This document shows positions 6,292 to 63,675 of a stretch of 64,000 nucleotides of DNA, in pieces. Location of the stretch: the IMG/VR virus record IMGVR_UViG_3300013132_000033, positions 1-64,000 of that record, one strand, 5' to 3'. The position numbers and the translations under genes are program-made. The notes below the pieces were generated by a model. That model was not told the DNA's origin. It did no database searches and saw only the letters and a program-made list of their open reading frames with translations. This DNA is from a virus. The first letter of the stretch is position 1. Every line of letters begins with the position of its first letter.

Positions 6292-6913
6292 AGACGATAA
6301 TATTTATACAGATCCTTTTTTATATTCTTTGTTAAATGGTGCAAGGAATATGCTTATTGAACAAACTTTTAATAAAATAAACCATATATCAGAATGGGAA
6401 TGGCAACAATTTCCAGTTAAGCTGGTAAAAGATAAATCACATATGATTGGTTGTGTAACAGTGGGTTGTGATATTTTAAGATCAGAATATAAATTACCAC
6501 GCCCACTGTTAACTAATTTAAAAAGTTTATTAACAGTAACTACATTTAGTTATCATACAATTGATTTTGGTACTGAACAAGATGTAGATTTAAATAAGTA
6601 TAATGATTTTAAAGCTAATAAGCCAGTTGCTACTATTGTAAATGATTATTTGGTTATCTGGAATAATCTTAATCTTAAAATGGTATTAGTATCTGGTGTA
6701 TGGGAAAACATAGTTCAATGGGCAGATATACCACAATGTGATGGTAATGGTGAATATGAACAAACACCGTGTTTTGATATTAAATCTTCACCATTTAAAA
6801 TAAGTGAAACTATGAAATTACCTGTTTATAAAATTGTATTAGATCAATTAAATATTAGTTTTAAACTTAATGAAGATTTAACTAACGATTCTAATTCTGA
6901 AATTAGATCATAA
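6233..6913 (+). CDS. putative crAss-like tail/neck ring protein
   Basis: Position ahead of the IHF-like/ring/muzzle genes as in Crassvirales; synteny-based inference. Confidence 0.5.
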   Translation: MNTINQYISDLRQLIKENGRDDNIYTDPFLYSLLNGARNMLIEQTFNKINHISEWEWQQFPVKLVKDKSHMIGCVTVGCDILRSEYKLPRPLLTNLKSLLTVTTFSYHTIDFGTEQDVDLNKYNDFKANKPVATIVNDYLVIWNNLNLKMVLVSGVWENIVQWADIPQCDGNGEYEQTPCFDIKSSPFKISETMKLPVYKIVLDQLNISFKLNEDLTNDSNSEIRS

Positions 6914-8216: not shown

Positions 8217-11200
8217 ACAATCAGCCACTCAATTACAAAATGGTTTAAATAAAGATTTAACATTTCAACGTGAAGGAGATGTTACTTATGCTTTAAACGC
8301 AATTCGAGATAGTCATGATGGTGGTAAGTATGATTATCAATCAGAACCAGGTAATGAATTTGCAGCAGTAATTCCTGGTAGTACTATAGTAGGTATAGTA
8401 TATGGTCAAGATGACGAAGTATATTTATTTGCTACAGACGGTAATGATTGTACAATAGGTATATTTAGAAAAAATAAATATACAGAACATGTACGATCCA
8501 GCTTTTTTAATTGGAGTGTAGATAATCCTATTACAGGGCAATCACGAGTTAAAAATGGATGCGAGAGATTAGTATATTGGTGTGATGCTTTAAATAATGA
8601 TTATTTTTATAATTTTGATAAACCTGAAGAATTTAAAACAGGTAATGCATTTGATGTAAACAAGTTTAAACTTGTACCATCTATACTTCCTATAAAAATG
8701 GATTTATTATCTGTTAATAATGGTGGTGGTTTATTACCATTAGGTTCTTATTATTTTCAAGCTGAAATACTTGATGAAAATCAAAATTCATTATACACAA
8801 GTGATGTATCACCTCAAGTAGTTATTTATGATAACTCGACGGCTGAAGATTACAATCGTATAAACGGCGGATTAAATATAGCTCAATATTCAGCAGAATC
8901 TGGGGGGGTACCATTAACTACTAAATCTATATCTTTAAAGTTTTATAATTTAAACCCGGCGTTTAAATTTATTAGAGTCAATGTATTTAGGAAAATTGCA
9001 GGTTCTAATCAATTAGATGGTCATACGGTAGCTGAATTAATATCTATTGGTAACGGTACAGTTAACTGGACGTATAGAGGTTTAAATACAGCGGCTGGAG
9101 ATTTTCCTATTGATGTAAACGAAAAATTTATAGATAATGCTAGATATGATTCTGCTTATGTAATGGAACAAGTGCAAGGTAGATTATTAAGAGCTAACTT
9201 AAAACAAGATGTAAGGGATTATTCTGAATATCAAAACTATGTTAGTAAAATTACAGCTAAATGGGTAGCTAAAGAAGTTGAAGCTAATAATATAGAATCT
9301 GTAGGTAATCCTAAAAATCCTGAAACATATTGGGTAGGTCGTGGATTCCAAGGTGATGAAGTATATATGTTTGGTGTTCAGTTTGTACACAAAGATGGTT
9401 CTATATCACCAGTATTTCCATTAATAGGTAAAACAAGTATTCCAAGTGATACATTTTTATATACAGTAGTTGCTAATACAGTTACATTACCACAATTCAA
9501 TGAAGTATGGTTATCTGATGTTGAACATTTAGGTTATCAAATAGGAAATCAAGTACCATCATGGAAATTTAAAAATGGAGCTATTATCACATCATCTCAA
9601 ACAGTAACACATCCTTATTCTTACGAAGGTGATTTTGGTTTTTATGAAACTGAAGAAACATATCCTGATATTCGAGATTGTAATAATAATTTAATATGGG
9701 GTACTGATGCAGATGATAATGTTATTACAACATCTACTAAAGTTAGATTGTTTCAATTTCCTGATAGACGTATTGTAAGTCATACAAGTATAGACGCTAA
9801 ATATTTAATACCATTAGGTGTAAAATTTAGTGATATAACATATCCTAACAGTGATGTTGTAGGTCATAAATTTGTTTATGCAGAACGTACAGAATTTGAT
9901 AAGACTGTAGTAGATTCTGGATGGGCAGTTAAACCAGAAGTATTAGAAATTGGTATTAAATTAGGTCAATATAGAGTAGGTGGTTCAGCAGAATTTACAA
10001 AAGCTGACCCTTTTAAAAATAGTACTATTGATAGTACTTTTTTACGATACATATCTTCTAACGTATTATATAAACAAAGATTAGGAGCATTTGATTATTA
10101 TAAATTAAATCGTGCTCATAGATTTGATTCTGGGTTAATATCTACTAACGGTGATTTAGATTATGCAAGAACACCATTAAAAGATGGTGGGTTCTTAGCA
10201 TCTGTTATTATGTATATGAAACAAACCAATCATGTACTTACAAGTAGATTAAATCATAAACAATTACAATCTATATTAGTAAAACCAAATACTATAACAG
10301 AAGCTCAAGGATACTTTCCTAAAATACTTGGTGAAGATTTATATACAGGTGATAGTGTTTCTAAAATAAACTATACTTTAGAAAACTCTATTTTACCAGC
10401 TCAAATTACAGATGATTGGCATCTTGGAAATAATACTCAATATGCAGTTAATAACTTTTATGCTTATAAGAAAGCTTTAGTTAACCCATACTCTAATTTT
10501 TTAGTTCGTAAGTATAAATCAATTCATCATAATTATACTACAAGTGTATTTGCGCAAGATAATGTTTATTATGGTGGTGATACTTTAATTACTGAAAATG
10601 CTAATTTTAGAGTAGCTTTTTTTTATAGGACTGCTCAAACTGCTGGTAGTTATATAATGACACCTCTATTTTGTCATCATTATGAAGAACATGATATTAA
10701 TACAGCATTACGTCATGAAGGTACTGGTGAAAACTTTAAGTATTTTAAAATGGGTGATACTGATGAAATTAATTATAATAGGTTAACTTATTATGATGGT
10801 ACAGATAGAGTATTAAATCAACGCAATAATATACAAACACTAAATGTAGAAACTGAATACTATGCTTATAATGATGATTATACAGTTGATAATGTAGAAA
10901 AAAGTAAAGTACCAATACCATCTTCATTTGATTATTGCTCAGATTGTTTATATAACTATCCTAACAGAATTATATTTAGTCCTAAATCATTTGATGAAGA
11001 AGCGTATGATTTATATCGAATATCAAAAATAAACGATTATATAGATATACCTGCTAGTAAAGGTAAAATAACAGGATTAAAATATATTAATAATTATTTA
11101 TTAGTACATACTGAAAATGGATTATTTATATTACAACCTAATCCTCAATCATTTGTTACTGATATTAATAATGTATATATTAGTACAGGAGATTTCTTAG

Positions 11201-55895: not shown

Positions 55896-58424
55896 TTAAC
55901 CGCATTTAGAACTACCGCATTCTTTACACTTTTGACAACCTTCTTCATAAACGATAGCTTTACTACCACAATCTAAACATGTAGCTGTAGAAGTAGTACC
56001 ATCTGGAATATATTGTTTAAGTGTTCTTGCAATAGCTTTTGTAAAACTATTTAATTCGCCATCTGTTTTTAATAGTTGCTCTACAATAAATTTAATATCT
56101 GCACCATGTCGTAATGATGTAGAAATAAGTCTTGTAATAGCTTGTTGTTCATCCGACATTGATTTAGTAATATCATTAACAATACTAAATTCATTATCAA
56201 GTGTACAAGTTAAATTGTAAACTCCACGACTTTTCTTTTTTAAAAATCCTGTTTTATATCCTGAACATAAAATATTAGGAATACAGAATACTTCGTATGG
56301 TTTACGATCTAATAAACCTACTAAAATAGTGTAAGGTTCAGCTTTTGCTTTAATATGATAAATATCTACATGCAATTCTTCAGGACGTTTAGGAGCGTCT
56401 CGATATTCAAATACATCTGCTTTTTTAGCATCTATTTGAACTAGTACTCCTGTACGACATCCATCTCTATAAATAGTTGTACCTTTTAAACCTTTTTTCC
56501 ACGATTCAGTATAAATAGTTGCAACTTCATCTACTGTAACTTCGTTAGGTAAATTAATTGTACTACTTATACTATGTGTAGTATATTTTTGAATTATACC
56601 TTGAATTTCAACACGTTTAGTCCAATCTATATCATTAGCAGTTGATTCGTACCAAGGTGATAGTGCAAATAAACTTTGTATTTCATCATTAGACATTGCT
56701 TGAATTATTTCACAAGCAGTATCATAAGGAGTACTTGTAAATACACTATACCAATTAATAAATTTAGGATGCACTACAGGATATTCCATCCAAGTATCAC
56801 CATTTTGATCTGTAAAATCAACACGTACTCCAGAATCTCCTGGATTTACTTTTTTTCTCCTCATATAACCCCAATTAAACAATGGTTCTAATCCGCTAGT
56901 TGTTTGTGTGAGGATACTTACGGAACCTGTTGGGGCAACTGTTGAAAATGATACATTACGCCTGCCTTGTTCAATCATTCGTAATACTTCAGGATAAAAG
57001 TTATCAACTAACATTTGGTAAAATTGATTTTTACCTTTAATTGATGTTATTTTATCTTTGTTATCACGTACAATATCAAATTCAGCATTAGCATCAAATC
57101 CTATAAACGCACCATATTGCTCTGCCATATTAATAGAAGCATTTAACTCAGCTTTAAACTTAGTTTTCATTACTTCTTCAATAATTGATAGTGCTTCATT
57201 AGAATCGTATTTAATTCTTAAAGCGGCAAGCATATCACCTAAACCAGTAAATCCGCAACCTGTACGTCTACCAGATTTTGTAATGTACCTGATATTTTCC
57301 CATAGACTATATTCAGTATTATAGATAGACGGATCATCGCAATTAACACGATCATTATCAATTTTATCTAAAATTCTGTTTATATGTTCTACTTCAAGAT
57401 CAATTACACCATCAGCTAATACTTGTTGATTATACGACATTTCATATAATTTCTGATAGTCAATACGAGCATCTTTAGTAAAAGGATTATTTACAAATGA
57501 ATATAAATTTAACGCTATTAAACGACAAGCATCATATTTACCCATAAAGATTTCTCCGCATGGATTTGTAGTGATTCCTTTATATTCAGGATATACAGTA
57601 TCGGGAGAATAATCCCAATGCTTATCAATAAATATAATTCCTGGTTCGGCAGACGCCCAAGCTGCTTGAATAATTTGATCATAAATAGCTTTAGCGTTTA
57701 CTTTTTTTGTATAAACAGTTATGTTGTCTACATTAAATTGTTCATAATTGTCAGAAGCATTTTTTAATACTTCATCATTATCATAATCACACGGCCATCG
57801 AAGTACATAATCTTCATTATTAGTAACTGCTTTCATAAAATCATCGCGAAGCATTACACTAATATTAGCACCAGTTACTTTAGTAAGATCTTTTTTAATG
57901 TTTATAAAATGTTCAACATCAGGATGTCGTACATCTATTGAAATCATTAAAGCACCCCTACGTCCATTTTGAGCAACTTCTCTAGTACTATTAGAGTACC
58001 TATCCATAAAAGATACAGCTCCTGTCGATGATCCTGCAGCATTTGTAACTGGAGAATTAGCCGGCCTAAGTGTAGAAATATCAATACCTACACCACCACG
58101 TCGTTTCATTAACTGAACTAATTCTTCATCTTTACGCATAATACCTGAATAAGAATCATGAGGCTGACCAACTACAAAACAATTAGATAAACTAGCTATT
58201 TTGTAATTTTTACCTAATGTAGCCATTATACTACCTTGAGGAATAATGTATTTAAAATGATCAAACATAACCATTATTTCATCATATGAAAGTTTAGTAA
58301 CACGAGCAAATTCTCGTGCCATTCTTTCATGCATATCTTTAGGCGTAACATCCGCCTTATCAGAATATTTACCTTGCCATACTGACATGGCAAGTTCATC
58401 ATTATTAAAATATGCTTTTAACAT
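55896..58424 (-). CDS. nrdJ: class II (adenosylcobalamin-dependent) ribonucleotide reductase
   Basis: SNCF, TNPCGE, ACRL, TVAPTGS, TSGLEP, ISSTIN, YRDG; C-terminal Zn ribbon with CxxCGxSKCG; no NrdB gene in the window. Confidence 0.9.
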   Translation of the reverse strand: MLKAYFNNDELAMSVWQGKYSDKADVTPKDMHERMAREFARVTKLSYDEIMVMFDHFKYIIPQGSIMATLGKNYKIASLSNCFVVGQPHDSYSGIMRKDEELVQLMKRRGGVGIDISTLRPANSPVTNAAGSSTGAVSFMDRYSNSTREVAQNGRRGALMISIDVRHPDVEHFINIKKDLTKVTGANISVMLRDDFMKAVTNNEDYVLRWPCDYDNDEVLKNASDNYEQFNVDNITVYTKKVNAKAIYDQIIQAAWASAEPGIIFIDKHWDYSPDTVYPEYKGITTNPCGEIFMGKYDACRLIALNLYSFVNNPFTKDARIDYQKLYEMSYNQQVLADGVIDLEVEHINRILDKIDNDRVNCDDPSIYNTEYSLWENIRYITKSGRRTGCGFTGLGDMLAALRIKYDSNEALSIIEEVMKTKFKAELNASINMAEQYGAFIGFDANAEFDIVRDNKDKITSIKGKNQFYQMLVDNFYPEVLRMIEQGRRNVSFSTVAPTGSVSILTQTTSGLEPLFNWGYMRRKKVNPGDSGVRVDFTDQNGDTWMEYPVVHPKFINWYSVFTSTPYDTACEIIQAMSNDEIQSLFALSPWYESTANDIDWTKRVEIQGIIQKYTTHSISSTINLPNEVTVDEVATIYTESWKKGLKGTTIYRDGCRTGVLVQIDAKKADVFEYRDAPKRPEELHVDIYHIKAKAEPYTILVGLLDRKPYEVFCIPNILCSGYKTGFLKKKSRGVYNLTCTLDNEFSIVNDITKSMSDEQQAITRLISTSLRHGADIKFIVEQLLKTDGELNSFTKAIARTLKQYIPDGTTSTATCLDCGSKAIVYEEGCQKCKECGSSKCG

Positions 58425-58452: not shown

Positions 58453-58590
58453 TTATTTTTTAAGTTTTTTAACTAAACGAAAGCCAAGAAAAGTAAAACG
58501 ATGATTTTTCTCATAGTAAACACGTACATTTATTTTACAAACTTCAATAACAGTACCATAAGAACCACCATAAATAAAAATATTATCCAT
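58453..58590 (-). CDS. array unit 12 (45 aa)
   Basis: MDNIFIYGGSYGTVIEVCKINVRVYYEKNHRFTFLGFRLVKKLKK*; 8-nt overlap with unit 11. Confidence 0.75.
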   Translation of the reverse strand: MDNIFIYGGSYGTVIEVCKINVRVYYEKNHRFTFLGFRLVKKLKK

Positions 58591-58723
58591 GTTTTAATGT
58601 TTTAATTAAACGGAACCCCAAGCCGCCGTAGCGGTAGTCGGGCGTGTCGCCGCTGCGATCCGCCACCCGGCAGTACTGCGGGTAGCCGTACCACGACCCG
58701 CCGCGAATATACTTATAATTCAT
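58583..58723 (-). CDS. array unit 11 (46 aa), very GC-rich core
   Basis: MNYKYIRGGSWYGYPQYCRVADRSGDTPDYRYGGLGFRLIKTLKHG*; TAATG overlap. Confidence 0.8.
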   Translation of the reverse strand: MNYKYIRGGSWYGYPQYCRVADRSGDTPDYRYGGLGFRLIKTLKHG

Positions 58724-58857
58724 TATTTCAGTTTTTTAATTAAACGAAATCCTAAGACTTTGTAGCGGTGATCCAGCTCGTCTAAGTACTGAAAATCGGG
58801 CAAGCAACCGATTGCTAGGCTACCATAGCTACCACCACGAATATACTTATAATTCAT
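58723..58857 (-). CDS. array unit 10 (44 aa)
   Basis: MNYKYIRGGSYGSLAIGCLPDFQYLDELDHRYKVLGFRLIKKLK*; ATGA overlap. Confidence 0.75.
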   Translation of the reverse strand: MNYKYIRGGSYGSLAIGCLPDFQYLDELDHRYKVLGFRLIKKLK

Positions 58858-58994
58858 GTTTTAACTGTTTTAATAAGTCTAAACCCAACATAATTACAAC
58901 AATATTGTTGATGACTCCACAATCGATCTGATGATTTACACGCTAGATTATTACTAATCCACGATCCACCATAATTAATAAGATAATTTTTCAT
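58854..58994 (-). CDS. array unit 9 (46 aa)
   Basis: MKNYLINYGGSWISNNLACKSSDRLWSHQQYCCNYVGFRLIKTVKT*; ATGA overlap. Confidence 0.75.
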   Translation of the reverse strand: MKNYLINYGGSWISNNLACKSSDRLWSHQQYCCNYVGFRLIKTVKT

Positions 58995-59131
58995 GATTTT
59001 AATGATTTAGTTAAACGAAAGCCAATGTATTGTGTCCTGAATGACGGTCGATAAGTTGTGCGAAAATCAGTACGGCAAAATTTTAGATTAAAATTATCCC
59101 AACAACCTCCAAAAATAATAAATGTATTCAT
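58991..59131 (-). CDS. array unit 8 (46 aa)
   Basis: MNTFIIFGGCWDNFNLKFCRTDFRTTYRPSFRTQYIGFRLTKSLKS*; ATGA overlap. Confidence 0.75.
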   Translation of the reverse strand: MNTFIIFGGCWDNFNLKFCRTDFRTTYRPSFRTQYIGFRLTKSLKS

Positions 59132-59271
59132 GATTTTAATATTTTAATTAATCGAAATCCAACATACAAATATTTGTAAATTGCTTTATTTCTAACATGT
59201 TCTGATGAACGATCAACTATTAAACAATTTTGATGATAAACACCTGTTCCTTTTATAGTTATTTGGTTCAT
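59128..59271 (-). CDS. array unit 7 (47 aa), AT-rich and diverged
   Basis: MNQITIKGTGVYHQNCLIVDRSSEHVRNKAIYKYLYVGFRLIKILKS*; ATGA overlap. Confidence 0.7.
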   Translation of the reverse strand: MNQITIKGTGVYHQNCLIVDRSSEHVRNKAIYKYLYVGFRLIKILKS

Positions 59272-59408
59272 AATTTTAATGATTTAGTTAAACGAAATCC
59301 TAAAGCGTTAGCATGATAATCCAATATACTAAGATTGCGATAAACTGTAAGACAACCGTAGTTAAAACTGCTACATCCACCGCCGCGAATGTTAAAATAT
59401 TTTTACAT
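59268..59408 (-). pseudogene. array unit 6 (ATG immediately followed by TAA)
   Basis: ATG(59408)-TAA then KYFNIRGGGCSSFNYGCLTVYRNLSILDYHANALGFRLTKSLKL*. Confidence 0.65.
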
Positions 59409-59539
59409 TTTAATGTTTTAATTAGACGAAAACCAACTATGTTGCTACGACACTCATGTACACCGATGTCACGATATAATACTCGACAACGCTCGGGAAC
59501 GTTAATCCAGCTACCGCTACAAAGAATAAAGGTATTCAT
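59300..59539 (-). CDS. array unit 5 (stop codon lost; reads through out of frame into unit 6)
   Basis: MNTFILCSGSWINVPERCRVLYRDIGVHECRSNIVGFRLIKTLK followed by a 35-aa extension. Confidence 0.65.
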   Translation of the reverse strand: MNTFILCSGSWINVPERCRVLYRDIGVHECRSNIVGFRLIKTLKCKNILTFAAVDVAVLTTVVLQFIAILVYWIIMLTL

Positions 59540-59673
59540 TATTTCAGTTTTTTAATTAAACGGAAGCCAATGCTGAAGTTGCGGAAGTCCGAATCGTCCC
59601 AGCCCCGAAACGCTACCCGGCAGTACTCCGGGGAGCGGTTCCAACTACCTCCAACAATATTAAAGTATTTCAT
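59539..59673 (-). CDS. array unit 4 (44 aa), GC-rich core
   Basis: MKYFNIVGGSWNRSPEYCRVAFRGWDDSDFRNFSIGFRLIKKLK*; TAATG overlap. Confidence 0.8.
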   Translation of the reverse strand: MKYFNIVGGSWNRSPEYCRVAFRGWDDSDFRNFSIGFRLIKKLK

Positions 59674-59807
59674 TATTTTAATGTTTTAATTAAGCGAAAG
59701 CCCAAAAAGTTGAAGCGGCGGTCCGGCCCGCTGATGAAGCGATCCGATGCGCGGCAGAACCTGGCAGTGTTGAGCCAGCCGCCGCTAAAAACTACAAATG
59801 TATTCAT
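59673..59807 (-). CDS. array unit 3 (44 aa), GC-rich core
   Basis: MNTFVVFSGGWLNTARFCRASDRFISGPDRRFNFLGFRLIKTLK*; TAATG overlap. Confidence 0.8.
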   Translation of the reverse strand: MNTFVVFSGGWLNTARFCRASDRFISGPDRRFNFLGFRLIKTLK

Positions 59808-59941
59808 TATTTTAATGTTTTAATTAAGCGAAAGCCGAGATGGCTGAAGCGGTAGTCCGGCCCGTAGAAGTTGCGATACGAAGCGCAGCAGTACACGGCA
59901 TTGATGACCCAGCTGCCGCCTTTTATAATAAAGTATTTCAT
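59807..59941 (-). CDS. array unit 2 (44 aa), GC-rich core
   Basis: MKYFIIKGGSWVINAVYCCASYRNFYGPDYRFSHLGFRLIKTLK*; TAATG overlap. Confidence 0.8.
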   Translation of the reverse strand: MKYFIIKGGSWVINAVYCCASYRNFYGPDYRFSHLGFRLIKTLK

Positions 59942-60072
59942 TATTTAAGTTTTTTGATTAATCGAAAACCAAGATATTTTTCGCAATATCTTAATTTATC
60001 ATAACTAGATATTGTTATACGGCAGTTTGTAATACTATTATAACTACCGCCTTTAATTATAATTTGTTTCAT
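59941..60072 (-). CDS. array unit 1 (43 aa)
   Basis: MKQIIIKGGSYNSITNCRITISSYDKLRYCEKYLGFRLIKKLK*. Confidence 0.75.
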   Translation of the reverse strand: MKQIIIKGGSYNSITNCRITISSYDKLRYCEKYLGFRLIKKLK

Positions 60073-60093
60073 TGTCAAGTAGTGTTAAAATTT

Positions 60094-60123
60094 AAAAAGG
60101 GGGCTGCTGTTAACAACCCCCTT
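60094..60123 (-). terminator. intrinsic terminator-like hairpin between the FGE gene and the array
   Basis: Minus strand AAGGGGGTTGTT-AAC-AGCAGCCCCCTTTTT. Confidence 0.7.
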
Positions 60124-60129
60124 AAAAAA

Positions 60130-60738
60130 TTATTTAGGTAGTGGCATGTTTTGATCTACGGACTGAGGAATTCGTTTGTTACGATAAAAATCAATAAAGT
60201 TTTGATTTGTAACGTTTGGAACAATAGGTCCATAGACACTATTAGTCCATTCCCACACGTTGCCGCTCATATCATACAGACCAATTGAATTTGGTTTTTT
60301 CAAACCAACAGGATGTGTTTCTCCGCCGGAATTTCCATAATACCATGCAACTTCGTCAATATTATCAGAACCTGCGTATTTATGTGAAGTCATTTCATGA
60401 CCTCCCCTTGCAGCATATTCCCACTGTTCTTCTGTTGGTAATTCATATTTATACTTAGGATCTAACTCATTAAGTTTTGCAATAAATTTTTTGATATCGT
60501 TGTAAGATATATTTTCAACAGGTCGATTTTCCCAATCAGGACGATTTTTAAAATACGATGGATTTTCACCCATCACATCTACCCATTGTTTTTGGGTAAC
60601 AAGAAATGTTGTCATTTCAAAATTTTCAGCAATCTCAACCATTTTGTTACGATTGGGACCGAAAAGAAATTTACCAGCAAGTACTTTTATAGTGCTGAAA
60701 TTTGGGAGTGTTGGTTTAAAACCTTTTGGTTTAGCCAT
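60130..60738 (-). CDS. FGE-sulfatase (SUMF1) / C-type-lectin-fold protein lacking the C-terminal RGGSW...GFR segment
   Basis: VTQxQW..VMGxNPSYF, PVENISY, LPTEEQWEYAARGG, HPVGxKKPNxxGLYDMSGNVWEW, then an unrelated ~36-aa tail. Confidence 0.9.
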   Translation of the reverse strand: MAKPKGFKPTLPNFSTIKVLAGKFLFGPNRNKMVEIAENFEMTTFLVTQKQWVDVMGENPSYFKNRPDWENRPVENISYNDIKKFIAKLNELDPKYKYELPTEEQWEYAARGGHEMTSHKYAGSDNIDEVAWYYGNSGGETHPVGLKKPNSIGLYDMSGNVWEWTNSVYGPIVPNVTNQNFIDFYRNKRIPQSVDQNMPLPK

Positions 60739-60750
60739 TTTGAAATTTTT

Positions 60751-61688
60751 TTAAAATAGTGAATGTTTTGGTTTAAATTTAACTACTTCGTTATTTGCTT
60801 GAACGATGTAGTATTGATAATTAATATTATAATCTTTTGGATTAGTACTTTGAACTTGATTTAATAATTGACTATAATATGATTTTCCTTTTTGAGGATG
60901 CGCATTGAGATATTCATACGATCCTTTTGAATATACTTTTTTAAATATCATACCTGTTTTAGATATGATATATCTTATTGTCTTTGGTAATTTAGTTACA
61001 GTATTATTATTTGTGATACCTATAAAAGAACTATCTTGTTTAGCCCTAACGCCTATACAATAATCAAAAATATTATCACCATTAATAATTGTATCTTCTA
61101 CAGGTGTGTTATACAAAAAATAATTATAAATAGCTTTTCTAACTATTAATTCAGATTTATTTTTATGTAACGGTAAATTTTCAAACTCAAAACTACCTTT
61201 ACATTTTGCTTTACCATTAGTATAAATTGCAATATAATTGTTGACATCTCGAATAATCATTTTACTATAATAAGCGTATTCTAATTGAAGTCTAGTTATA
61301 GACTCCCATTGTTTACAAATATTATAATATTCTGATTCATGTTGTTTTCTAAGTTTACAAGTTAAACCGTCTGTATTTATTTGAATAAGTGTCAAATCAG
61401 GTATTTCCATTAATTGTTCAGCTAACATTGTTAACATTAACTGACCATTAATAGTTGTAGATAATGTATATTTAAAATCACGTAACCAAGAAGTTTCTTC
61501 ATTACTTTTACCGTAGACACTATTAGCAGCTTCTTTATAACCGGCAACAATAACAAAATCTCCATTTTTACCTTTTGCTTTTTCACGTAATCTTACATCT
61601 ACAATATCTTCTTTGTAAACTCTACTAAATTCTTCTCCTAAATGTTCAGGATATAAATTATTTACTGTAGCTATACTTGGGTATAGTG
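60751..61688 (-). CDS. polB: family B DNA polymerase, exon 2
   Basis: Open frame upstream of track ORF 60751-61437 gives (S)LYPS, KEAANSVYGK (motif B) and NTDG (motif C). Confidence 0.9.
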
Positions 61689-62552: not shown

Positions 62553-62780
62553 TATTTTAACAACTTTAACAAAACTTTAACGTTTTAATGCTTCCTGTTA
62601 AGTCTCTGAACCTTATTCTCATATTTTTGTGAGAATCTTGGCTGCGGATTGACCAATACTTTCTCTTTTTACTATACTCAATTGATTAGATTGACCACTA
62701 TATACATCACTGTCATAGTTTAGTAAGAAAGTCTCTAAGGTTATTCCCGCAATTTAAGAAGTTTTAGTTGCGCCACTTTA

Positions 62781-63675
62781 ACGCAACATCGGCATCAAGA
62801 ATTATCCAATCATTGTCAGCATTTACAATTTCAGTATTTACACTACCATGTATACCGCCTTTACCATAATCAAATTGAAATCCTTTATAAATAAAAGATT
62901 TATTAAATTTTTCTGTTGGTTCAATATTTTTATCTTTAAACCAATTTAATAAACCTTGTAATTCTATATTTTTAAATTGTATATACGGAAAAAGTATATC
63001 TTTTACATATACATTTGTACGTATAGTTTGTTTTTTACTAATTTCTTTTTTATTAGCTTTAACTGCTTTACAGTATAAATCTAACATTAATTCTGATCCT
63101 ATTTTACTATTACTAGCATTTATAAAATTTATACCATATTTGCTAGTTAAACTTATTCTTAACTGTAATTCTTTTTCATACAGTTTAAATAATTGATCTG
63201 TAGCATTTACATCATTAATACAATATTTTATAGTAGCATCAGCTTCTTCTCTTGAATTAACATGACCATGATAAGGCATATCTTCAAGATTTGGCCAATC
63301 AACCATAAATTCACACCATTTTAAACTTACCATTCTGTTTTTATTATCAAGATGTAATATCTTGTAAATATCAACATTAAATATAGTTCGTTTGTATATA
63401 GGAACAATTATTTCTTCTTGTTCAATTATTCTTACTGTATATTCATGAATTTGTTTAGCAGTTAACTTTCTTAATTTTAACAGTTCGATAATTTGACCAT
63501 CAAAATTTAAATTGTTATATCCGCGTAAAGAATTAACAGTTTTTAAAAAAGCTACTAATTCATTATACTCATTTTTCCAATCACTTATTTCAAAGATTTT
63601 ATAATTATCTTCATTTTTAAATACAGCACAAAAGAAATTAGGTAGAGTTTCTACATCATAAGTCCAATTTGCCAT
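62781..63675 (-). CDS. polB: family B DNA polymerase, exon 1 (3'-5' exonuclease domain and start of motif A)
   Basis: YDVE (ExoI), GYNNLNFD (ExoII), YCINDV (ExoIII), GGIHG, DADVA; spliced product 610 aa. Confidence 0.9.

Follow-up and report, generated by a model that had tools for sequence, protein, structure and literature searches.

An FGE-type C-type-lectin (CLec) gene that lacks its C-terminal element lies beside an array of 12 short tandem units matching this very element, and on balance we read the two as a split binding protein with an interchangeable library of tips, seeded by DGR activity, whose pieces would complement each other in trans. The binding protein would be encoded as a 202-aa scaffold, devoid of the last two core strands and of the variable loops between them, and as a separate C-terminal element available in 11 live mini-proteins of 43–47 aa plus one dead copy. 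Each mini-protein would bring two docking strands (xGG(S)W and GFRLIKxLK) flanking a hypervariable middle. These strands would slot in next to the NVWEW strand of the scaffold core, and a single scaffold gene would thereby yield about a dozen binders differing in their tips.

Genomic context of the locus

We analysed a window of 64,000 nucleotides from an IMG/VR record of 99,040 bp that is ~90% complete, the absent ~10% lying in the tail module. The record is best explained as a divergent crAss-like phage of Bacteroidota. The locus occupies the minus strand throughout and lies between the genes for DNA polymerase and ribonucleotide reductase (RNR), with a GIY-YIG endonuclease gene also among its neighbours, just as the initial annotation had placed it among replication genes. 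Because FGE and reverse transcriptase (RT) are both absent from the complete relatives G001 and G002, and because the polymerase gene directly adjoins the RNR gene in G001, the locus is best explained as a 2.3-kb accessory module. The neighbouring genes offered no sulfatase context for the FGE-fold gene. Formylglycine-generating enzymes proper carry a catalytic cysteine pair in their C-terminal region (human FGE structures, e.g. 1Y1E); alignments of the units show a single, partly conserved cysteine column instead of such a pair.

A truncated FGE-type scaffold

Residues 16–170 of the scaffold match PF03781 (102.8 bits, cut-off 23.3), and the match stops well short of the end of the family (Table 1), which bears out the earlier description of an FGE-fold gene deprived of its C-terminal segment. 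The polypeptide ends ~37 residues past GNVWEW and misses the C-terminal ~45 residues; it thus holds no complete FGE domain, the C-terminal RGGSW...GFR element being absent from it. We searched the entire 99,040-bp record in six frames and found neither a further FGE N-terminal part nor, in the other frames of the scaffold gene, a C-terminal part; the latter occurred only in the separate units.

Past the last family match, the scaffold continues for 32 aa as a clade-specific tail whose sequence is conserved among its orthologues (motif NVTNxNFIxxYRxKxIPxS), the latter being 202–206 aa long and 52–99% identical. The truncated scaffolds form three clades (identities of 99%, about 69% and about 52%), each within this range of length. 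Three other candidates were rejected as truncated scaffolds: L003 and L023 are both full-length with variant GLR/GAR ends, and MT836415 is an ordinary full-length lipoprotein-like gene.

An array of twelve units matching the missing element

Downstream of the scaffold ORF, 12 tandem units of ~45 codons lie between positions 58453 and 60078 with a period of 131–144 nt (Table 1). All 12 contain GFRL and share the orientation of the scaffold, and their layout comprises xGG(S)W near the start, a hypervariable middle and a GFRLIKxLK end. Seven of the nine units tested matched PF03781 positions 214–255, with 24.4 bits for unit 11 alone (cut-off 23.3) and 13–21 bits for the other units, in agreement with the proposal that the units are the segment that the scaffold lacks. 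Downstream of the variable region, where DGR targets have an initiation-of-mutagenic-homing sequence and a hairpin, only an 8-bp palindrome, TTAATTAA, was seen after GFRL.

Table 1. Features of the locus, with positions given in the window.
Feature	Position	Strand	Remarks
FGE/CLec scaffold gene, 202 aa	60130..60738	-	PF03781 positions 5-194 of 255, E 3e-29
Terminator-like hairpin + T run	60087..60123	-	between scaffold stop and unit 1
Unit 1, 43 aa	59941..60072	-	AT-rich, putatively old; orthologues P0007 and P0009 at 86-88% identity (sister strains)
Unit 2, 44 aa	59807..59941	-	core 61% GC; PF03781 positions 214-255
Unit 3, 44 aa	59673..59807	-	core 64% GC
Unit 4, 44 aa	59539..59673	-	core 61% GC
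Unit 5, first 45 codons	59300..59539	-	no stop; 79 aa, on through unit 6 out of frame
Unit 6	59271..59408	-	ATG-TAA (59408-59403), then open unit frame; no usable start
Unit 7, 47 aa	59128..59271	-	AT-rich; P0008 96% identical
Unit 8, 46 aa	58991..59131	-	
Unit 9, 46 aa	58854..58994	-	
Unit 10, 44 aa	58723..58857	-	intermediate GC, core 49%
Unit 11, 46 aa	58583..58723	-	core 72% GC, highest of any 80-nt stretch in the genome
Unit 12, 45 aa	58453..58590	-	AT-rich, last of the array; C-terminal end GFRLVKKLKK

Eleven of the 12 units are intact ORFs whose stop and start codons overlap. The count of eleven usable ATGs in the initial annotation stands, unit 6, which is probably the single dead copy, being the exception; the missing stop of unit 5 had gone unmentioned. 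Overlaps at nearly all junctions, as had been reported, comprise TAATG (n = 5), ATGA (n = 4) and one 8-nt ATGGATAA overlap, suggesting that the units are translated by coupling. Reassignment of a stop codon that would fuse the units was rejected, since the stops are a mixture of TAA and TGA and adjacent units lie in different frames.

An AT-rich frame of 44 codons is expected to be open with a chance of only ~0.027, so that 11 open frames out of 12 place the array beyond chance. The C-terminal nonapeptide GFRLIKxLK showed a pN of 0.09 and a pS of 0.51 (pN/pS 0.18), indicating that this end is under purifying selection acting on the protein rather than on the DNA. Since the frames are open and pN is low relative to pS, the units behave as real genes by sequence criteria. 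The framework residues C, R, P and R are relatively conserved across 30 mini-proteins from several contigs; in several mini-proteins of other contigs even they have drifted.

Truncated scaffolds and units recur together

Truncated scaffolds are encoded on contigs of 105,730, 5,388, 57,168, 6,672, 6,469 and 3,538 bp, and mini-ORF hits were obtained on contigs of equal bp; co-occurrence in these other phages was judged from this equality of contig bp rather than from their DNA. By the same matching, contigs of 99,895 bp carry a six-unit protein as well as a truncated scaffold of 177 aa. The expectation that a truncated FGE gene and an array would be found together in related phages was thus borne out in three clades, as matched by contig bp, but not by scans of IMG/VR with unit or framework patterns, which gave no match. 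Other searches returned little: the whole locus had no match at the DNA level among GenBank phages, tblastn with a mini-protein yielded only two weak hits, both in full-length genes, a metagenome scan with one narrow pattern found only two irrelevant full-length genes, and a scan of bacterial genome contigs recovered only full-length relatives of ≤56% identity.

Fused arrangements exist as well. P0269 combines one domain with 5 extra units, P0259 and P0408 each join a scaffold to about 10 units, and in P0274 a truncated scaffold comes after 5 units. In addition, unit-only proteins of 85–260 aa with 2–5 tandem units make up 72 of the 146 best representatives. Fused and unit-only forms are thus widespread; they, like the GC-rich, putatively young units of DGR type described below, had escaped the initial annotation.

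A predicted complex of the scaffold with unit 11

The initial annotation had proposed complex prediction of the scaffold with the peptides. When carried out with unit 11, three runs gave ipSAE values of 0.92, 0.91 and 0.92, compared to 0.00 for the best control, although this pass may come from the model's memory of a solved fold, of which this is a split gene. Of 80 solved complexes, 58 attain the ipSAE mark that we applied, compared to 2 of 110 mismatched pairs. At least 98% of the contacts agreed between the runs, the partner pLDDT was at least 88, and the pLDDT of the scaffold was 92 with unit 11 compared to 68–70 with unrelated partners. For the scaffold alone, with an alignment of 10 rows, it was 48, a low value that the shallow alignment may explain. 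In the predicted complex, residues G36–I40 of unit 11 contact scaffold residues 42–47, 74–75, 98–101 and 161–164. The models of this complex and of the fusion described below draw on alignments as well as on FGE structures already solved.

The initial annotation had also claimed that any one of the peptides complements the scaffold in trans, and this claim found partial support. Because scaffolds and units co-recur in three scaffold clades, because the unit ends are under protein-level selection and because the predicted complex passes its controls, we regard complementation in trans as probable.

The competitor that survives best, which we nevertheless hold to be unlikely, is that the mini-proteins work without the scaffold, either by self-association or as decoys and strand competitors directed against host FGE-domain sensors. 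The abundance of scaffold-free proteins of 2–5 units does suggest that a unit may be able to work alone, the core of unit 11 resembles the variable region of a caspase-FGE protein (see below), and the terminator-like hairpin uncouples the array from the scaffold. Such a function would leave unexplained why a scaffold of 202–206 aa that lacks exactly this element has been kept down to 52% identity. It also sits poorly with the joint recurrence of truncated scaffolds and mini-proteins in three clades (matched by contig bp), with the existence of fused scaffold-plus-units proteins, and with a predicted complex that is confident and specific relative to its controls.

DGR marks in the units

The GC content of the unit cores ranges from 27 to 72%, compared to 29% for the window. 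Units 2, 3, 4 and 11 are GC-rich and poor in A, and the sites at which they differ tend to be adenines in true, non-cognate template repeats. A gradient leads from these units down to AT-ameliorated ones. Our reading is that these four units are the youngest copies and that the AT-rich units are older, having decayed to the AT-rich composition of the phage with their frames still open. Between units 2 and 3, the first, second and third codon positions account for 10, 9 and 2 differing sites, respectively. At these differing sites, A stands in 74–78% of cases in heterologous true template repeats (TRs), which are non-cognate templates, compared to 18–22% at the other sites (Fisher 2e-7), a strong enrichment.

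The nearest template to unit 11 is the TR of a TR-HRDC-bAvd-RT cassette (L237) in a Saprospiraceae MAG; Saprospiraceae are the likely host group. Against this TR, again a non-cognate template, unit 11 had mismatches at 17 of 29 A sites and at 10 of 67 non-A sites (p 3e-5), the identity at non-A sites being 85% rather than ~100%. The adenine signal was absent from the eight AT-rich units. A 632-aa protein from a Lewinellaceae MAG, which comprises a signal peptide, a caspase-like domain and an FGE domain, has a variable region to which the core of unit 11 is also 74–79% identical in DNA. We read these marks as suggesting that the variable middles of the units began as DGR variable regions.

A DGR was sought in the phage itself. 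No RVT_1 (PF00078) match was obtained in the 99,040-bp record or in G001 and G002, while positive controls matched; no unit-like sequence occurred outside the array in the record (~90% of the genome; best E >0.01), and no TR-like, comparably GC-rich island occurred elsewhere in it. The absent ~10% of the genome, which lies in the tail module, could hold a DGR. The cognate template was also sought without success in the Lewinellaceae MAG, in 300 further genomes of the same order and in two additional Saprospiraceae MAGs. Since RT and template are both missing from the phage record, we propose that either an external DGR would have written the tips or they would date from a time when the phage lineage still had a DGR of its own.

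A more speculative version, to which we give rather little credence, is that the tips are rewritten during infection by the DGR of the Saprospiraceae host or of a co-resident element, in which case a split receptor would draw its diversity across genomes. If so, the unit-only proteins and the scaffold-plus-many-units proteins would be cellular versions of the same principle. The orphan DGR marks, and the fact that the nearest template belongs to a bacterial cassette, are relevant to whether DGRs can act across genomes, a question for which the locus is a suitable test because putatively young and old tips adjoin.

The gradient of units, from GC-rich to wholly AT-ameliorated, would also be expected if the array were non-functional, decaying debris, built up from repeated by-products of DGR retrohoming or of unequal recombination in the 3′ terminal part of a gene that was formerly full-length. 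Decay would further account for one dead unit and one unit without a stop, for unit contents that differ among strains with 99%-identical scaffolds (P0460), and for the ~10-fold higher rate at which the units evolve relative to the scaffold (86% identity of unit 1 to its orthologue, compared to 99% for the scaffold). We find this improbable, since the old AT-rich units remain open with start codons far beyond chance, the C-terminal motif shows a low pN/pS, the M..GG.W...GFRLIKxLK layout is retained on many independent contigs, and the truncated scaffold is conserved, its own tail included.

The junction between scaffold and array

The scaffold stop is followed by a hairpin with a stem at 60123–60097 of 12 pairs, 6 of them GC, and then by TTTAAATTTT; a hairpin with a T run is a standard terminator. 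This terminator-like structure may cause the scaffold and the array to be expressed at different levels or times.

In the bypassing of phage T4 gene 60, take-off and landing codons are matched, and the take-off codon is followed by a stop and a hairpin. The last scaffold codon is AAA, directly followed by TAA and the hairpin, which resembles T4 gene 60, and another in-frame AAA lies 60 nt downstream. Unit 1 is in frame with the scaffold (666 nt from the scaffold start to the ATG of unit 1), with two TAA codons in between. The read-through fusion of scaffold and unit 1 is predicted to fold as a complete FGE domain, its model superposing on TvpA (2Y3C) with a Z of 26.4 and an rmsd of 2.2 Å over 200 residues at 34% identity. 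These features raise a further explanation, namely that the units, instead of working in trans, become linked to the scaffold, either by such translational bypassing or as silent cassettes moved by recombination. We judge it very improbable: an in-frame position has a chance of one in three and concerns unit 1 only, AAA is very common at 29% GC, and the hairpin with its T run is accounted for by termination, whereas the units carry their own ATG and stop with coupling overlaps, are all in one orientation and have no recombinase nearby, the neighbours being polymerase and RNR.

Hypervariable DGR targets are known to confuse assemblers, but an artefact in which the assembler concatenated population variants of a single variable region is hardly credible here, given that the units differ in length, flanks and composition, that their junctions are ordered with overlapping stops and starts, that the identical unit proteins recur in 4 recorded contigs, with related proteins known from many independent assemblies, and that the truncation of the scaffold is conserved in other clades.

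Relation to known variable proteins

Outside vertebrate immunity, no case of programmed protein hypervariation is better known than that of DGR variable proteins. To our knowledge, in every described case the variable tip and the scaffold are on the same chain. The fusion model of our locus has the same FGE-type C-type-lectin fold as TvpA of Treponema denticola (PDB 2Y3C), the variable protein of an HRDC-type DGR. TvpA-type proteins and the units alike have their variable region between the RGGSW and GFR strands, and variation in the putatively young units appears to be adenine-directed as in TvpA-type DGRs, although for the units this was seen on non-cognate templates. The cassette holding the nearest template to unit 11 is likewise of the HRDC type. 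In known DGR variable proteins, however, the variable region is the C-terminus of a continuous protein, with TR and RT in the same genome, whereas here it is a separate gene in 12 copies, with no TR or RT in the phage record.

One DGR template can serve several variable repeats, and paralogous FGE targets can be in tandem, according to the accessible parts of the DiGReF survey (PMC3521204), the MetaCSST survey (PMC6642488) and the account of Thiohalocapsa PB-PSB1 (PMC10907252). In the multi-repeat DGRs that these parts describe, the repeats are whole genes or whole tandem CLec domains; an array of variable-region-only mini-genes beside a scaffold without its variable region is not reported there. 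Complete DGR cassettes diversify tail-fibre proteins in crAssphage LMMB (PMC7290462) and in Zeta crAss-like phages (PMC12386605). The present phage shares with them CLec domains with DGR-type variation in Crassvirales, but its module lies among replication genes, is split and comes without a cassette. Shufflons and invertible cassette systems (R64 Rci, Mu Gin type) differ in combining inverted alternative C-terminal segments with a site-specific recombinase, neither of which we found at the locus.

A split library of tips would make a natural split-protein display system. It would give the phage about a dozen binding specificities at ~140 bp each, compared to ~650 bp for each full paralogue; in related phages, up to seven full-length FGE paralogues are found in tandem (L067–L071).

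Anatomy of the split locus

The initial annotation described an FGE/C-type-lectin gene truncated at its 3′ end and twelve downstream mini-genes supplying the missing C-terminal segment. Both claims were borne out: the profile match of the gene product, hereafter the scaffold, stops short of the profile's end, and positions 214-255 of the FGE-sulfatase profile were matched by 7 of the 9 units tested. Each unit encodes the layout M-x(5-7)-GG(S)W-x(24)-GFRLIKxLK. As had been proposed, 11 of the 12 units have their own ATG and most adjoin through TAATG or ATGA; this description needed correction for unit 6, in which TAA immediately follows the ATG, for unit 5, which has no stop codon, and for one junction, an 8-nt overlap. 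A search of all 99,040 bp of the record revealed no further FGE sequence.

Coordinates of the scaffold, the unit array and neighboring genes
Feature	Position	Strand	Remark
Ribonucleotide reductase (RNR) gene	55896-58424	minus	other flank of module
Array of twelve units, 131-144 nt each	58453-60078	minus	directly follows scaffold
Scaffold ORF, 202 aa	60130-60738	minus	Pfam FGE-sulfatase match limited to profile positions 5-194 of 255
Last DNA polymerase fragment	60751-61437	minus	flanks scaffold side of module
GIY-YIG homing-endonuclease ORF, 264 aa	61707-62501		between polymerase pieces, non-coding flanks
Other DNA polymerase piece	62764-63675	minus	

A terminator-like hairpin lies between the stop of the scaffold and unit 1, which share a reading frame (60072-60132). 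The final codon of the scaffold, AAA, is followed by TAA and the hairpin, with an in-frame AAA (unit 1 codon 2) 60 nt downstream; the arrangement is reminiscent of bypassing in T4 gene 60 and may be coincidence.

The record, estimated to be about 90% complete, has a crAss-like layout, with matches to crAss-type families for terminase, portal and major head protein. Its portal shares 23% identity with those of Flavobacterium and Bacteroides phages, and 71% and 50% with those of two complete relatives (G001 and G002, respectively). Since neither relative carries an FGE gene and the polymerase gene directly abuts the RNR gene in G001, the scaffold and units form an accessory insertion. The polymerase gene, split in the studied phage (60751-63675), is a single intact 615-aa ORF in G001, and the interruption probably represents a mobile intron that encodes its own endonuclease. 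The RNR gene, intact here, matches the 108.7-kb G001 in four pieces (G001:C1:48747-53480; L221, L222) separated by intervening sequence and stops, which suggests introns or inteins. Two adjacent tRNA-Leu(TAA) genes lie elsewhere in the phage genome (G000:C1:68083-68257; L085 4083-4257).

Predicted completion of the scaffold by a unit

Modelled alone from a 10-row alignment, the scaffold folded poorly (pLDDT 48). A read-through model joining it to the in-frame unit 1, with two TAA codons read as Q (86-row alignment), reached a pLDDT of 77.6 (76-94 along the GFRLIKKLK strand), and its best solved match was TvpA, the variable protein of a diversity-generating retroelement (DGR) (2Y3C; Z 26.4, rmsd 2.2 Å, 200 residues). 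The complex prediction called for by the initial annotation was run for unit 11 and gave ipSAE values of 0.92, 0.91 and 0.92 versus 0.00 for the best control; of 80 solved complexes 58 attained the ipSAE mark, as did 2 of 110 mismatched pairs. Contact agreement between runs was at least 98%, partner pLDDT was at least 88, and scaffold pLDDT was 92 beside unit 11 versus 68-70 beside unrelated partners. In the predicted complex, the GFRLI residues of unit 11 pack on scaffold residues 42-47, 74-75, 98-101 and 161-164. The result shows that the pieces, each one half of a fold for which many structures have been solved, fit that known fold; it does not extend to binding in the cell.

The best-supported reading is a split lectin-fold binding protein, in which one scaffold would be completed in trans by variable tips drawn from a library of mini-proteins and tip diversity would be seeded by DGR-type mutagenesis. 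We infer that the tips physically complement the scaffold and that all could be used, conceivably with a role in infection. No account of a truncated scaffold beside such a unit array was found in the open-access text of the DGR papers searched.

Scaffold relatives, unit-only proteins and fusions

Orthologues of the scaffold (99%, about 69% and about 52% identical; 202-206 aa long) all end at the same point and have a clade-specific tail in common. Members of these scaffold clusters lie on contigs of 105,730, 5,388, 57,168, 6,672, 6,469 and 3,538 bp, and contigs with mini-ORF matches have exactly the same sizes, which indirectly suggests that the architecture recurs. Full-length FGE versions in other IMG/VR phages reach at most 55% identity. 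Some phages carry up to seven tandem full-length paralogues (L067-L071; about 185-265 aa), the unsplit counterpart of the studied array.

A unit profile was searched against 1.84 billion representatives. Among the 146 best matches examined, 72 proteins are made solely of 2-5 tandem units; units are thus able to exist without any scaffold. That the peptides of the studied array act alone or as decoys is nevertheless unlikely. The unit-only proteins (P0262, P0267, P0272, P0281, P0287, P0312 and about 65 more) are small and widespread, and what they repeat in tandem is the C-terminal element of FGE, RGGSW...GFR; their inter-unit variation looks DGR-like, and no description of them was found.

At 29% GC, the chance of an open 44-codon frame is about 0.027, and 11 of 12 units are open. 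Over the last nine codons (GFRLIKxLK) of the 11 intact units, mean pS is 0.51 and mean pN 0.09; constraint therefore acts on the protein, not the DNA, and it is highly improbable that the array is debris. In their middle portion the units are saturated (pS 0.81, pN 0.56). A profile of the units also detected ~45-aa proteins of the same layout from many other metagenome contigs; the least variable core columns among these minis are still the framework ones, namely Cys, Arg, Pro, Arg and a hydrophobic position just ahead of GFR.

Nineteen of the 146 matches have more units than scaffolds. Among them, P0269 has one domain and five extra units, P0259 and P0408 have a scaffold and about ten units, and in P0274 a truncated scaffold comes after five units. 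Contigs of one and the same length, 99,895 bp, carry P0260, which has six units, and P0224, a truncated scaffold of 177 aa. The combined proteins connect scaffold with multiple units in the manner of gene fusions. We see very little room for units of the studied phage being joined to the scaffold at the DNA level or by translation, and we give almost no credence to an assembly artefact.

Apparent turnover and DGR-type variation of the units

In a strain with a 99%-identical scaffold, the unit 1 orthologue is only 86% identical, a two-unit ORF (P0460) has no counterpart in the studied array, and a unit 12-like copy (P0006) occupies the unit 5 position. Another contig carries variants of the unit 11 lineage (P0005, P0013) whose variable residues differ. 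Because unit-core GC ranges from 27 to 72%, we suggest that units are repeatedly added or rewritten, then decay toward phage composition yet stay open.

A DGR-type pattern marks units 2, 3, 4 and 11, which have the highest GC content anywhere in the record. Between units 2 and 3, the differing sites number 10, 9 and 2 at first, second and third codon positions, respectively (dN 0.45, dS 0.14). Genuine pairs of template repeat (TR) and variable region (VR) with AAC-to-NNC changes were found in bacterial homologues (L103, L136, L112, L092, L105, L163). In these heterologous templates, A stands at 74-78% of the unit 2/3 differing sites versus 18-22% elsewhere (Fisher 2e-7 to 2e-5), and entropy among 30 minis is higher (3.25 versus 2.45 bits; p 0.002) at the columns where six templates have Asn.

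The unit 11 core resembles the VR of a 632-aa caspase-like/FGE protein from a Lewinellaceae MAG. One of three Saprospiraceae MAGs searched has a TR followed by HRDC, bAvd and reverse transcriptase (RT) genes; unit 11 mismatches this TR at 17 of 29 A sites versus 10 of 67 non-A sites (p 3e-5). The TR is closely related to the true template but is not that template. Neither an RT nor a template-like copy is present in the phage record, and neither complete relative has an RT. The tips may thus have been written by a DGR outside the phage; the assembly break of the record is in the tail module, so the missing 10% could hold a DGR.

In another IMG/VR phage (L001), the VRs of two full-length FGE paralogues (6507-6602 and 9929-10024) show 12, 6 and 2 differences at first, second and third codon positions, the same DGR-type mark; no RT occurs within the 56 kb examined of this phage, about 40% complete. 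The sole RT among five FGE-carrying phage contigs, in the 136-kb phage of L003 (G008:C1:88925-89440), has an in-frame TAG, a hint that the gene is broken or that the stop codon is reassigned there. Directly downstream of the Lewinellaceae caspase-like/FGE gene lies a long run of short repeats (L132 5670-7620), translation of which on both strands repeatedly yields the motifs MSPCGRHD and PAVDMT; the run may be a MITE-like repeat array.
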